Assembly (NCBI GenBank): GCA_964016885.1
Contig: OZ024764.1
Coordinates: forward strand, 3,224,001 to 3,288,000
Source of the DNA: Eledone cirrhosa
Taxonomy: Eukaryota
Reading direction: 5' to 3'
Length of the DNA stretch: 64,000 nucleotides
In this document: piece after piece, positions 11,683-44,384 of the stretch
Layout of the letters: every line of letters begins with the position of its first letter
How positions within the stretch are numbered: the stretch's first letter is position 1
The notes under the pieces: model-generated
The model's database searches: none
Told to the model about the DNA's origin: nothing
What the model saw: only the letters and a program-made list of their open reading frames with translations
Made by a program: the position numbers and the translations under genes

Positions 11683-14112
11683 GGGCAGTGGATTGGCAGT
11701 ATCGGTAGAGGGTCGGACGCCATGTTAGGGCGGTGGATTGGCAGTATCTGTAGAGGGTCGGACACCATGCTAGGGTGGTGGATTGGCAGTATCGGTAGAG
11801 GGTCGGACACCATGCTAGGGTGGTGGATTGGCAGTATCTGTAGAGGGTCGGACACCATGCTAGGGTGGTGGATTGGCAGTATCGGTAGAGGGTCGGACAC
11901 CATGCTAGGGTGGTGGATTGGCAGTATCGGTAGAGGGTCGGACACCATGCTAGGGTGGTGGATTGGCAGTATCTGTAGAGGGTCGGACACCATGCTAGGG
12001 TGGTGGATTGGCAGTATCGGTAGAGGGTCGGACACCATGCTAGGGTGGTGGATTGGCAGTATCTGTAGAGGGTCGGACACCATGCTAGGGTGGTGGATTG
12101 GCAGTATCGGTAGAGGGTCGGACACCATGCTAGGGTGGTGGATTGGCAGTATCTGTAGAGGGTCAGATGCCATGCTAGGGCGGTGGATTGGCAGTATCGG
12201 TAGAGGGTCAGACGCCATGCTAGGGTGGTGGATTGGCAGTATCGGTAGAGGGTCAGACGCCATGCTAGGGTGGTGGATTGGCAGTATCGGTAGAGGGCCA
12301 GATGCCATGCTAGGGTGGTGGATTGGCAGTATCGGTAGAGGGTCAGACGCCATGGTAGGGTGGTGGATTGGCAGTATCTGTAGAGGGTCAGACGCCATGG
12401 TAGGGTGGTGGATTGGTAGTATCGGTAGAGGGTCGGACGCCATGGTAGGGTGGTGGATTGGCAGTATCGGTAGAGGGTCGGACGCCATGCTAGGGTGGTG
12501 GATTGGCAGTATCTGTAGAGGGTCAGACGCCATGCTAGGGTGGTGGATTGGCAGTATCGGTAGAGGGTCAGACGCCATGCTAGGACGGTGGATTGGCAGT
12601 ATCTGTAGAGGGTCAGACGCCATGGTAGGGTGGTGGATTGGCAGTATCTGTAGAGGGTCAGACGCCATGCTAGGGCGGTGGATTGGCAGTATCTGTAGAG
12701 GGTCAGACGCCATGCTAGGGCGGTGGATTGGCAGTATCGGTAGAGGGTCGGACACCATGCTAGGGTGGTGGATTGGCAGTATCTGTAGAGGGTCAGATGC
12801 CATGCTAGGGTGGTGGATTGGCAGTATCGGTAGAGGGTCGGACGCCATGCTAGGGTGGTCGATTGGCAGTATCTGTAGAGGGTCAGATGCCATGCTAGGG
12901 TGGTGGATTGGCAGTATCGGTAGAGGGTCAGACGCCATGCTAGGGTGGTGGATTGGCAGTATCGGTAGAGGGTCGGACACCATGCTAGGGTGGTGGATTG
13001 GCAGTATCGGTAGAGGGTCGGACGCCATGCTAGGGTGGTCGATTGGCAGTATCGGTAGAGGGTCAGACGCCATGCTAGGGTGGTGGATTGGCAGTATCGG
13101 TAGAGGGTCGGACGCCATGCTAGGGTGGTCGATTGGCAGTATCGGTAGAGGGTCAGACGCCATGCTAGGGTGGTGGATTGGCAGTATCGGTAGAGGGTCG
13201 GACGCCATGCTAGGGTGGTGGATTGGCAGTATCGGTAGAGGGTCGGACGCCATGCTAGGGTGGTGGATTGGCAGTATCGGTAGAGGGTCGGACGCCATGC
13301 TAGGGTGGTGGATTGGCAGTATAGGTAGAGGATCGGACACCATGCTAGGGTGGTGGATTGGCAGTATCGGTAGAGGATCGGACACCATGCTAGGGTGGTG
13401 GATTGGCAGTATCGGTAGAGGGTCGGACACCATGCTAGGGTGGTGGATTGGCAGTATCTGTAGAGGGTCAGATGCCATGCTAGGGTGGTGGATTGGCAGT
13501 ATCGGTAGAGGGTCAGACGCCATGCTAGGGTGGTGGATTGGCAGTATTGGTAGAGGGTCAGATGCCATGCTAGGGTGGTCGATTGGCAGTATCGGTAGAG
13601 GGTCAGACGCCATGCTAGGGTGGTGGATTGGCAGTATCGGTAGAGGGTCGGACGCCATGCTAGGGTGGTGGATTGGCAGTATCGGTAGAGGGTCGGACGC
13701 CATGCTAGGGTGGTGGATTGGCAGTATCGGTAGAGGGTCGGACGCCATGCTAGGGTGGTGGATTGGCAGTATAGGTAGAGGATCGGACACCATGCTAGGG
13801 TGGTGGATTGGCAGTATCGGTAGAGGGTCGGACGCCATGCTAGGGTGGTGGATTGGCAGTATCGGTAGAGGATCGGACACCATGCTAGGGTGGTGGATTG
13901 GCAGTATCGGTAGAGGGTCGGACGCCATGCTAGGGCGGTGGATTGGCAGTATCAGTAGAGGGTCGGATGCCATGTTAGGGCGGTGGATTGGCAGTATCGG
14001 TAGAGGGTCGGACGCCATGCTAGGGCGGTGGATTGGCAGTATCGGTAGAGGGTCGGATGCCATGTTAGGGCGGTGGATTGGCAGTATGGGTAGATGGTCG
14101 GACGCCATGCTT
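11683..14112 (+). repeat. 45 bp minisatellite, ~54 copies, amplified from a SINE 5' head
   Basis: Unit GGGTGGTGGATTGGCAGTATCGGTAGAGGGTCGGACGCCATGCTA; the last unit runs directly into the SINE body. Confidence 0.95.
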
Positions 14113-28584: not shown

Positions 28585-29130
28585 AGTATGTATACGTACA
28601 TAGATATATGTATACAGACGTACAGTAGTATGTATATATATATACATACATGCACATATATATATATGTACGTATGGGTTTACCGGACATTAATTATAAT
28701 GTTCGGTGTGTTTGTAAACAAACATCCCGAATTAAGCCGCACCGTGTTCGGCAACATCATCGCCCTTTTGTTCAACACTGACAAAGGAACAATGAACTAG
28801 TTTCAAGCTTATTAGCTATCGTCAGCATCGTATACCTTCTTTTCCATTTATCGTTTTCGTTACGCCTGGCCGACTAACTCACTCAATATGCAAATTAGGC
28901 TGCTCATCCGTTAATATGCATAAGGAAAGTATATACTTTCAAACGTTCAATCATTTGACAGGAAGGTATACGGTGCCGATGACAGCTAATAAGCTAGAAA
29001 CTAGTACATCGTTCCTTTGTCAGTGTTGAACAAAAGGGTGACGATGGTTGCTAGACACTGTACGGCTTAATTCAGGCTGTTTGTTTACAAACACACCGAA
29101 CATTATAATAAATGTTCGGTAAACCCATAC

Positions 29131-29206
<76 letters not shown>

Positions 29207-41405: not shown

Positions 41406-42691
41406 ATATAATGTTGTGTCTGTCTCTCACTTGCTGCATAGTTGCAGCTTATAACGTCCCTGATATATAGACATCGAATATAAGGTGGACCTGTCTTATA
41501 ACGTCCCTGATATACAGTAGATTGTAATAGCTACCCCTCCATACAGTCTATAGTTATATCTAAAGATGGGCCTGTCTTTTAACGTCCCTGATATACAGTA
41601 TATTGTGGTAGCTGTCCCTCTATATAATGTTGGGTCTGTCTGTCTATAGTTACAACAATATAAGGGTGTGTTTGTCTTTTAACGTCCCAGATATAGAGTA
41701 TATTGCGGTAGCTGTCCCTCCATACATCAGCTGTTACATCTAATATAAGGTCTGTTTGTCTCTCTCTTTTAACGTCCCTCATATACAGCATATTGCGTTA
41801 ATTGCTCCTCTCTACATCCCACAGGGATGTATGGGTGGGCCTCTCTTTTAACGTCCCTGTTATATGTTCCCCACAAGGCCCACAGTTACAATATAACAAT
41901 GGGTCTGTATTTTAATGTCACTGATATACACCTTATACAAGGTTAGGCCTGTCTCTTAACATCCCAAGAACTGGGGTCATCTGTCAATGGCACACCCATA
42001 AACCCGGAGTCCATCAAGGTACGTATTAAGTCACATTTGTATCTATATTTTTAATTATTCGTTGATGAAATAATATATGTAAACGGAATAAATGGAAGTA
42101 ATTCAGGTGTGAAGATATTTTTCATTAGAAAATTGTTAATACGTTGCTGGTGCTATATGTGTTGTTACGGGGTGTAGTTATGGTTGTCAATCGAAAACCG
42201 ATGGTGAACGTCTCTCGAAGGTTCAATGTCCTCTCTGGCTTGTAAGATCTTGTCTGTGGCTAACGCTAGCTTAGAGGGCCAAAGGCATGTAGTGTATGTA
42301 CATAAGGTCGCCAAAAAAGTGGTTAAAAGACATGTCTAACCTGTATAATCTTCTATGGTTATCGCTCGACTGTAAACAAAGCTGGCTACCCTCTCACGTC
42401 TAACTTGCGTCTCTATCGCAATATCTTGTAGACATTAAAGGGTCCTGAATTGTAGAAAGGGTCACTATCAAACTTCGATAAAACCCCATAATTAAACTCC
42501 CTAAACAATCCGTTGGCAGACATCGAAAACCCCGTCTTCGTAGCACCACCAATGCATTAATAATTGTCTTATGAAAAAAAATATTTGAATCCAGAATTAC
42601 TTCCCTTTGTTCCGTTTGCATATATTAATTTTTTTTTGATCAAAATTTTTCCAAAGTAGCCATAAGTACCACTATTTAACTCAGTAGAATT

Positions 42692-42848
42692 GCGGCCTTC
42701 GCGGTGGCGTGCGATCTGCGTCTCAGACTACCAGTCCCCCTGGCTGGCGTTCGATTCGTAGTGGCGTACGACTGCATCGGCCTGGGACTATTCGGGGCCG
42801 GCACATAGATGCAAGGCCCGTCCCTGACCACCGTGAAGAATTCTTTTT
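42692..42848 (+). ncRNA. Candidate structured RNA polymerase III transcript (unassigned family)
   Basis: GC-rich island; 11 bp terminal stem CTTCGCGGTGG (42697-42707)/CCACCGTGAAG (42828-42838); B box GTTCGATTC (42749-42757); TTTTT at 42844-42848; TATTTAA at 42673-42679. No expression evidence. Confidence 0.4.
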
Positions 42849-42857
42849 CAAATTTCA

Positions 42858-43065
42858 TCTAATATGCAAATGAGCTCGAAGTTCATTTACATATTAGAAG
42901 AATTGTATTAGAAAGAATCTTATTATATATAGAAAGAATCTTAATTACTCTTGAAGCTTCATTTACATATTAGAAGCTCATTTGCATATTAGAAGAAAAT
43001 TTTTTTTTAGAAATATATTAGAGAATCTTAATTACATTTTTGAAGTTTCATTTGCATATTAGAAG
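42858..43065. promoter_or_regulatory. Cluster of octamer (POU/Oct-1-type) motifs in a short repeated module
   Basis: ATGCAAAT 42864-42871, ATTTGCAT 42980-42987 and 43050-43057, ATTTACAT 42886-42893 and 42961-42968, each in CATTTRCATATTAGA; function is inferred only. Confidence 0.4.
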
Positions 43066-43080
43066 AACCTTGGAGGTTAA

Positions 43081-43770
43081 TTACATTCTTGGAAGACAGT
43101 TGGATTTGAACTTTCTTAACTTAGTTTCTATATAGAGAGACTTAGATTCTTAGAACCCACAATCTCACTTACATTCTTGGAAGACAGTTGGATTCGAACC
43201 TTCTTAACTTACATTCTTAAAACCCACAATTTCACTTACATTCTTGGAAGACAGTTGGATTCGAACCTTTGATACTTTCTTTACATTATTAGATGGTTTC
43301 TACATTCTTGGAAGACTGTTGGATTCGAACCTGAGATACTCTCTTTACATACTTGAAGGTTCTTATTACATTTTTGATACTTAGAACCCTTGATGGTTAA
43401 TTAGATTCTTGGAAGACAGTTGGATTCGAACCTGAGATACTTCCTTTACATTCTTGATACTTAGAACCCTTGATGGTTACTACATTCTTAGACGACTGTT
43501 GGATTCGAACCTGAGATACTTTCTTTACATACTTGAAGGTTCTTATTACATTTTTGATACTTATCACCCTTGATGGTAACTACGTTCTTAGACGACTGTT
43601 GGATTCGAACCCTCAATGATACTTTCTACATTGTTGACATTCTTTATTGATACTTACTCTTCATTCCCTTGGTACTTACTTTTCTCTCCTTAGATTCGAA
43701 CCATTGAAGACACCGTCTACATTGTTTATTGGACAACCATTTTTGGAGCGACTGCTGGATTCGAAACCTT
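43081..43770 (-). repeat. Irregular repeat array carrying ~9 Pol III B-box motifs
   Basis: GGATTCGAACC (reverse complement GGTTCGAATCC) at 43190, 43257, 43321, 43422, 43501 and 43601, with variants at 43102, 43692 and 43757, inside a conserved ~30 bp module. Confidence 0.8.
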
Positions 43771-44384
43771 GATGAGGCTGTTTAAAATATATTTTACCTT
43801 CATACCAGGAATAAATAAACAACACAATAAAGTATATGATACAATTGTTTTATTACAAACTTATTTCATTCTACAGAACACTTGTTGGCTGGACATCTGT
43901 AAAGAAGGAACATAAGAGAAGAATTAAACAATATTTCTCGTGTATTTAAATACGTTTTTGTCAATAAAAACACGTTGAATTCTATTTTACGAAGTTGTTA
44001 TTTATTATTGATGTTCATAATTAATTGAAACAACAATAAAAGCTATTTATATGTATGTGTAACGTACACATATTATTGTTTTAACGGGATATTGTCTATG
44101 TCTAACGAGGATCAAGACAAGGACTATTCGGGGCCGGCCCAGACGACAGTGGAGCAAATCGTACAATGAAGAACAACAAACCTGGATTCAACAGCAATGA
44201 ACTTATAGATGGGCTGGCCTCGTCTCCTCAGAGACAATAGGTAAACTATTAGAGTGGACACCAACGTACCAACAAGTACAAATGGTACAGTGTCTGACAA
44301 AATAATCAACACTGTTCTTGGACTAAAACAAAACTTTAAAATGATTGCTTACGAAGGGAAAATTGGTTAGGACGCCAGGGTTAA

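Follow-up and report, generated by a model that had tools for sequence, protein, structure and literature searches.

Does a segment of about 155 nt in the genome of Eledone cirrhosa encode a structured RNA polymerase III (Pol III) transcript of a distinct kind and, if so, does the gene belong to the host or to a virus or large mobile element? A preliminary description had put forward an orphan, VA-like RNA at this site and had allowed for either origin. The segment lies in a stretch of 64,000 nt (assembly GCA_964016885.1, contig OZ024764.1, positions 3,224,001–3,288,000, forward strand), referred to here as the window, whose DNA is rich in satellites and LINEs and comes from an animal genome of 3 Gb. 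Contigs of four sequencing runs from one study, of unrecorded type, span the segment and confirm its DNA, and a direct check of the sequence found every motif that had been named at the position given for it. We call the predicted RNA, and the genes resembling it, RNA1. The features of the locus, in window positions, are these:

42595–42605, plus strand: motif M (RDTTAYYTCCC) at −97, likely a Pol III activator site; in 37/38 RNA1 loci
42614–42621, plus strand: octamer-like GTTTGCAT at −78; younger subfamily only, 23/37 copies
42661–42668, plus strand: TATA-like box (C/T)ATAAGTA at −31; in 37/37 RNA1 copies
42692–42848, plus strand: predicted RNA1 transcription unit, about 155 nt, with the start (G42692) taken from the TATA spacing and the end from the T5 run
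42697–42707, plus strand: 5′ strand of the terminal stem, CTTCGCGGTGG, forming 11 bp with CCACCGTGAAG, one of them G-U
42708–42770, plus strand: apical arm (helices 2–4), a long interrupted hairpin holding the B box; double changes at columns 19–77 and 41–55
42749–42757, plus strand: internal B box, GTTCGATTC, present in the window copy
42782–42826, plus strand: 3′ arm (helices 5–6), made of a lower stem, a U-rich bulge of 5–6 nt (42789–42794), an upper stem and a hexaloop
42828–42838, plus strand: 3′ strand of the terminal stem, CCACCGTGAAG, paired in the single-copy fold and in the consensus fold of 22 sequences
42844–42848, plus strand: T5 Pol III-type terminator, seen in the window copy
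42864–43057, no strand assigned: three perfect octamers past the terminator, starting at 42864, 42980 and 43050
43103–43702, minus strand: eight B-box-like motifs in short repeats, 8 of the window's 10 GATTYGAAC matches
44121–44150, plus strand: decayed partial copy of the RNA 3′ half, with an exact 18-mer repeat

The candidate proved not to be an orphan. A genome search with RNA1 gave 40 scored matches (of 95 candidates) that are 79–100% identical, and the window copy is a young member of a multicopy gene family. Behind the same promoter lies a second, longer RNA of 182–194 nt, RNA2, whose own search gave 40 scored matches (of 286 candidates), and reading of 20 further loci added RNA3 (163–164 nt) and RNA4 (186 nt), making at least four related subfamilies; these genome searches report best hits only, and rare retrocopies could escape them. 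Two tight promoter patterns found 75 and 44 sites, with 0 for the reversed controls, and the family thus counts at least 119 promoter sites, a lower bound given that the covariance model was run on selected loci rather than on the whole genome; 108 of the 119 lie on C12–C27. Run on 30 sources, the RNA1 covariance model picked up 18 RNA2-type matches besides the window copy and nothing in the five loci of U6, 7SL and vault RNA that were among them. In new loci it also detected RNA3 and RNA4. Scores across the three subfamilies went as low as about 14 bits. Among 7 diverged copies the mean identity is 0.80 over the 100 bp promoter and 0.84 over the RNA body, and 0.54–0.60 in the flanks. Broken copies are common, making up 7 of 40 RNA1 loci and, in a later batch of 25 promoter sites, about 15.

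We surveyed 10 kb around each of the 40 RNA1 loci. The RNA1 alignment comprises 22 distinct full-length sequences, with some counts referring instead to 37 copies or 38 loci; it leaves out three loci that are deleted or rearranged (L071, L076 and L077), four that have no intact start (L072, L088, L089 and L090) and identical duplicates. The 18-mer repeated at 44121, considered as a guide or target site, was ruled out as such: longer versions of this repeat in L058, L060, L062, L063 and L065 align to the RNA 3′ half, of which it is a decayed piece. A metagenome scan returned a single match, by eye a bacterial tRNA gene that scores 7.2 bits with the RNA1 model and is put down to chance.

The consensus fold predicted from the 22 RNA1 sequences is a three-way structure composed of an 11-bp terminal stem, an apical arm and a 3′ arm, which we extended by hand to 46 pairs. 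The apical arm is also predicted in RNA2, and the stem-bulge-stem of the 3′ arm in RNA3 and RNA4, where the upper stem has a different sequence. Across the 22 sequences 96.1% of cells are paired, 6 of the 46 pairs carry double changes (those of the 3′ arm at columns 97–135 and 114–123) and none of 500 shuffles matched the covariation score, tests that are partly circular in that the structure was derived from the tested alignment and that kinship among related copies can beat covariation shuffles. The 13–29 differences that separate subfamilies leave 44–46 of the 46 pairs intact, where random placement keeps a mean of 33–41; 26 of 28 such comparisons beat all 300 simulations, the two exceptions being the closest pairs, with 6–7 differences. 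The plus strand folds better than its complement in 15/15 members. A minus-strand transcript was rejected because the G-U pairs and the T run favour the plus strand. These comparisons demonstrate divergence that preserves the predicted structure on the plus strand. Stability gives a more modest signal: the window copy folds at −65.4 kcal/mol (z −2.0, with 6 of 200 shuffles equally good), modestly better than chance, and its own clade, in which two pairs are lost, reaches a z of only −2.0 to −2.2, with a range of −1.8 to −4.9 among other members (15 members).

The conserved fold sorts the helices that had been proposed from the window copy. The terminal stem is kept, with 237 of 242 cells paired (97.9%) and double changes at 2 of its 11 pairs in the 22 distinct sequences, and a run of at least four T residues follows it in 22/22 aligned sequences, whose rows had been cut at that run. 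An extension of this stem through AGAATT/AATTCT does not hold up: the 3′ AATTCT occurs in 22/37 copies, and five unpaired bases offset it from AGAATT. The CAGTC hairpin is retained (fully intact in 16/22), and neither the TGCATC/GATGCA nor the CGGCC/GGCCG helix is conserved (6/22 each). Pairing of TCGTA with TACGA can form in 22/22 but is incompatible with the apical helix that bears the double change at columns 19–77. GGGAC at 42784 pairs with GTCCC at 42820 in 22/22, with one double change; its suggested role in a switch or pseudoknot is unsupported, since the alternative partner, GTCCC at 42734, pairs in 16/22 and in variants does so solely through G-U. Set against the consensus forms of the A box and the B box, the latter GTTCRANNC, the B box reported for the window copy is indeed there, and across the family it is strict in 12/22 distinct RNA1 sequences and imperfect in 10/22.

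Upstream of the RNA, TATTTAA at 42673 had been taken for a TATA box, a role that its retention in 20/37 copies does not support. The TATA-like box at −31 is found not only throughout RNA1 but in all 4 RNA2 copies scanned, and the TATA box of U6 in the same genome stands at −30. Motif M falls between −130 and −60 in 37/38 RNA1 loci, against a far-flank background of 0.14 per kb and three occurrences in the 64 kb window. It was also found upstream of 2/3 U6, 1/2 7SL and 2/3 vault loci scanned, lying 190–270 bp upstream of several of these genes (L121–L123, L135, L139 and L142), and was absent within 350–400 bp upstream of 7SK and of the window's tRNA-Glu gene. A motif-M-like string inside the window's SINE family indicates that the motif is not gene-specific, and the presence of such boxes is by itself no proof of a host gene. 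We regard motif M as a candidate lineage-specific Pol III activator site. The octamer-like box that had been noted at 42614 is present, though confined to the younger copies; U6 genes bear ATGCAAAT or ATGCTAAT at −76 to −78, the same place as this box. Older RNA1 copies have motif M at about +173 in place of the downstream octamers.

Because the changes among related copies keep the branched fold and the promoter has a U6-like layout, an undescribed small RNA is likely here. The Pol III-type, VA-like structured RNA of the preliminary description is thus well supported, at the level of sequence, by promoter layout and structure-preserving divergence; as for its two origins, a host-encoded gene is favoured and a virus or large mobile element is without support. 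The family is a real one of Pol III-type genes for structured RNAs, apparently new to description. An Rfam search of the candidate gave no family match and sub-threshold hits only, and 4 further loci gave none at gathering score. We found no paper describing RNA1–RNA4 in a literature search that lay outside most subscription journals and repeat databases, and six 9–10-mers had no match in three supplementary files of PMC9699675.

How the family has spread is legible in its flanks. We conclude that RNA1 genes moved as DNA, because the copies retain both upstream and downstream DNA. For 26/37 copies the closest relative shares their contig, against a mean of 5.8 after shuffling. The loci lie among satellites, in flanks built of shuffled modules and tandem repeats. 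Of the 23 cases in which a neighbour lies within 20 kb, 18 are facing, 4 divergent and 1 tandem, with the reservation that facing pairs are not independent events. Their inverted arms, 0.4 kb long at the least and about 15 kb at the most, in some cases include LINE pieces, and some facing pairs are identical inside arms of 98–99% identity; arm length and content vary by locus, and the regions read showed neither a shared terminus nor a target duplication. At C22:9.02–9.05 Mb in the same genome (G000; L233, L195 and L234) a palindrome with arms of about 15 kb or more surrounds an identical RNA3 pair. As to SINE-type retrocopies, promoter-less, A-tailed full copies were not seen, and 37/38 RNA1 loci keep the upstream motif; an internal 18-mer has 30 exact matches, every one of them at a locus of this repeat unit, and a run of at least 10 A residues follows the terminator in 4/37 RNA1 copies. 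The window itself holds two other repeats: a 45 bp satellite of 54 copies (11688–14111), made from the head of the local tRNA-type SINE, and, by eye, a MITE-like element of about 450 bp (28677–29131) with long inverted arms, flanked by TA microsatellites.

None of the established small RNAs of this genome accounts for the family, and separate U6, 7SL, vault and 7SK genes lie away from it. Eight members were aligned locally with 7SL, vault, U6 and tRNA-Glu; the best z scores, 2.8 and 2.4, were both with U6 and both at chance level given that 40 alignments were tested. A 7SL likeness that had been suggested was not borne out by comparison of 8 members with the genome's own 7SL (z −1.2 to 0.9). 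The view that the candidate is not a tRNA stood, with no cloverleaf from ARAGORN or Rfam at this site, and the isolated tRNA-Glu(TTC) gene at 51714–51786 of the window is unrelated to it (ARAGORN). Vault RNA (RF00006) has in common with RNA1 its paired ends, an internal box with an upstream TATA, an oligo-U end and multiple copies; however, the RF00006 model gave no hit on the candidate, similarity to RNA1 is not above shuffles and the true vault genes form a separate tandem array at G000:C3:221.18–221.25 Mb (L137–L142; 14 hits at or above the Rfam cut-off, 87–93 nt, TATA at −31 to −33). The candidate has no match to RF00100 either, and the 7SK gene of this genome is a separate locus on C2. 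U6 forms a tandem array of 32 hits at G000:C19:31.78–31.84 Mb (32 of 48 U6 hits are head-to-tail), and 7SL one of 21 hits at C12:42.10–42.13 Mb with 2 more at 42.86 Mb (23/25 head-to-tail). A hammerhead core was sought in 7/7 RNA1 representatives and not found (no CUGANGA on either strand, no GAAA on the plus strand). Comparison with tRNA sequences suggested a possible tRNA-Arg origin of the family, and a pattern search for tRNA-Arg genes of that type found none. The shape of the 3′ arm may resemble that of the hepatitis B virus epsilon, with no supporting context at these loci.

By analogy, the closest counterpart appears to be primate snaR and not viral VA RNA, with no common origin implied; the known kind that the family extends is the lineage-specific, duplication-amplified Pol III RNA. 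The snaRs are made by Pol III, are highly structured and restricted to a lineage, and have a B box, a T-run terminator and several subfamilies; they spread mainly by segmental duplication along with flanking DNA, partly in inverted regions (PMC3045588, PMC2094060). The RNA1 family resembles them in its Pol III-type structure, B box, T run, subfamilies, duplication with flanks and inverted regions. The two differ in that snaR is about 117 nt, Alu-derived and equipped with an intragenic promoter and 3′ oligo(A), whereas the RNA1 family encodes RNAs of 155–195 nt that have a branched fold and no likeness to the host 7SL, from genes with a fixed TATA and motif M upstream that are dispersed as facing pairs. 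VA RNA is similar in size to RNA1, with its B box in mid-molecule. The modelled RNA1 consensus fold, with its covariation, would match the three domains of adenovirus VA RNA, namely a terminal stem, an apical stem and a third structured domain, as they are set out in PMC5511817. Paralogous genes are a further likeness to VA RNA I/II; the family differs in having no viral genes nearby, no viral contig match and no Rfam match, and in having more than 100 chromosomal copies with host-type upstream elements. The TRIMp3 elements (Helenus, Ajax and Cassandra) are mobile repeats in which both terminal repeats bear a Pol III promoter (PMC10886601). They share with our loci a Pol III-type promoter in paired repeats, but their repeats are LTRs around a primer-binding site within 311–1263 bp, whereas here two genes are inverted and 2–10 kb apart and the RNA fold itself is conserved.

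A coding partner was not apparent. The 108 open reading frames (ORFs) of at least 85 aa from 19 loci matched no viral or transposase Pfam family, their matches being to reverse transcriptase (RT), endonuclease, PHD/C1, a hydrolase and a weak DUF only, and a search of viral contigs with the family gave 0 matches; by eye, long ORFs in three 70 kb regions resemble LINE or Helitron pieces. The reading as a viral VA RNA is unsupported because no viral or transposase gene was found near the copies. Linkage to a zinc-finger gene was also discarded, with no C2H2 pattern in the window, in 70 loci or in the long ORFs of the three 70 kb regions. Three frames were seen beside individual copies. L089 carries on the minus strand (224–3082) an open frame of 953 aa with a weak RT match (E 0.00028) and, by eye, a GIY-YIG-like end; it is Penelope-like and adjoins a TA microsatellite, and as an RNA partner it was rejected because it lies beside the L089 copy alone. 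L157 holds an unbroken frame of 246 aa for a lipid-droplet hydrolase (3496–4233; PF10230, E 6.5e-58), possibly a retrocopy, about 4 kb from an RNA2 gene. In L076, at about 2.2–2.6 kb on the minus-strand side distal to the RNA, a frame with a zinc knuckle and a restriction-like endonuclease was recognised by eye as a piece of an R2-superfamily-like retroelement.

These observations bear on four other accounts of the loci. The facing pair could form the centre of a selfish DNA element with long inverted repeats (foldback-like), or of a decayed DNA virus, its RNA a VA-like decoy of silencing or of dsRNA sensors and its coding partner lost or elsewhere. Such an element would explain why 18/23 neighbours face, unlike the head-to-tail U6, 7SL and vault arrays, why some pairs are identical within arms of 98–99% identity and why the flanks are shuffled modules with tandem repeats. 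We nevertheless consider it unlikely, as the arms differ at each locus and reveal no shared end or target duplication in the regions read, no viral or transposase family is represented among the 108 ORFs, the search of viral contigs came up empty and the pairs are not independent. The loci might alternatively act mainly as DNA, clusters of TFIIIC and activator sites serving as chromatin boundaries or activators in satellite-rich regions, with the RNA secondary. The extra B-box-like repeats, octamers and motif M that flank the gene on both sides, and the satellite setting, would fit; but the B box is less conserved than the stems, and pairing is kept through the RNA body on one strand, which a DNA-only function would not need, so that we hold this account to be quite improbable.

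Just as snaR derives from Alu, the family might derive from the head of a tRNA-type SINE and be left as a largely neutral source or relic. This would accord with the collinearity of RNA2 and one SINE copy of the window (L096 score 40, z 5.7, 0/300; L091 z 3.4; 56 comparisons). A profile of 86 SINE copies, on the other hand, gave no positive score for 14 family members, although this profile is insensitive, since it missed tRNA-Glu too. Promoter-less, A-tailed full copies were not seen, the 30 internal 18-mer matches are all at repeat-unit loci and structural selection speaks against neutrality; we give this account, too, little credence, while noting that a SINE origin as such is compatible with our best explanation. 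It would be more surprising still if the family were the lineage's counterpart of Y RNA or stem-bulge RNA (sbRNA), acting in replication initiation or with Ro60. The multicopy Pol III genes, the end-closing stem and the U tail invite the comparison, as does a paired GUG-CAC, found in the terminal stem of 21/22 RNA1 sequences and also in RNA2b and RNA4, which defines the upper stems of Y RNA and sbRNA (PMC4450293, PMC4726728). In RNA2a and RNA3, however, GUG-CAC is missing, and a 3-bp motif in a GC-rich stem is weak evidence. Nor is there a lower stem with a bulged C, the RNA1 stem being 11 unbroken pairs with an unpaired 5′ overhang of 5 nt, or UUA(U/C)C after the stem, where the apical helix comes next, and where Y RNA and sbRNA would have a single-stranded loop there are two long hairpins. 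The family thus shows, in part, one of three Y/sbRNA features, and none of 51 scored candidates matched the Y RNA model of Rfam.

The explanation that we favour, with somewhat better than even confidence, is that the window holds a young copy of a family making Pol III RNAs of 155–195 nt that serve as ligands or decoys of dsRNA-binding proteins. That at least some copies yield a real Pol III transcript is highly probable. Transcription by Pol III would begin at G42692 under the control of the TATA box, motif M and the B box and end in the T run, so that the transcript would have a U tail for La to bind, and intact copies would yield a branched, U-tailed RNA with the predicted three-way structure. 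Selection appears to act on the RNA helices, which may reflect contact with a dsRNA-binding protein, perhaps through a conserved site in the bulged 3′ arm or in the internal loop of the B box. New copies would arise through segmental and inverted duplication, and copies would be lost through deletion. snaR binds NF90, and VA RNA binds PKR, Exportin-5 and Dicer; by analogy with both, the RNAs could be ligands or decoys for dsRNA-binding proteins. A partner of this type, given a real transcript, is the least supported step, and we propose it tentatively, at somewhat short of an even chance. A bolder form of the proposal, which we think rather unlikely, is a new animal class of Pol III RNA that travels as a facing gene pair inside long inverted duplications, a VA-like decoy, host or selfish, homogenised from arm to arm, whose bulged 3′ arm would titrate dsRNA-binding proteins (ADAR, Dicer or Exportin-5, for example) in a lineage noted for heavy RNA editing.

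Few classes of Pol III RNA are known in animals, and it is rare for a new one to come with covariation support. The family described here spans more than 100 loci in four diverged subfamilies, its promoter and fold are defined, and it points to an upstream motif common to Pol III genes of this genome. If expressed, it would give invertebrates a parallel to the snaRs of primates and the VA RNAs of viruses, in an unusual facing-pair layout, and it would be a candidate regulator of dsRNA pathways.
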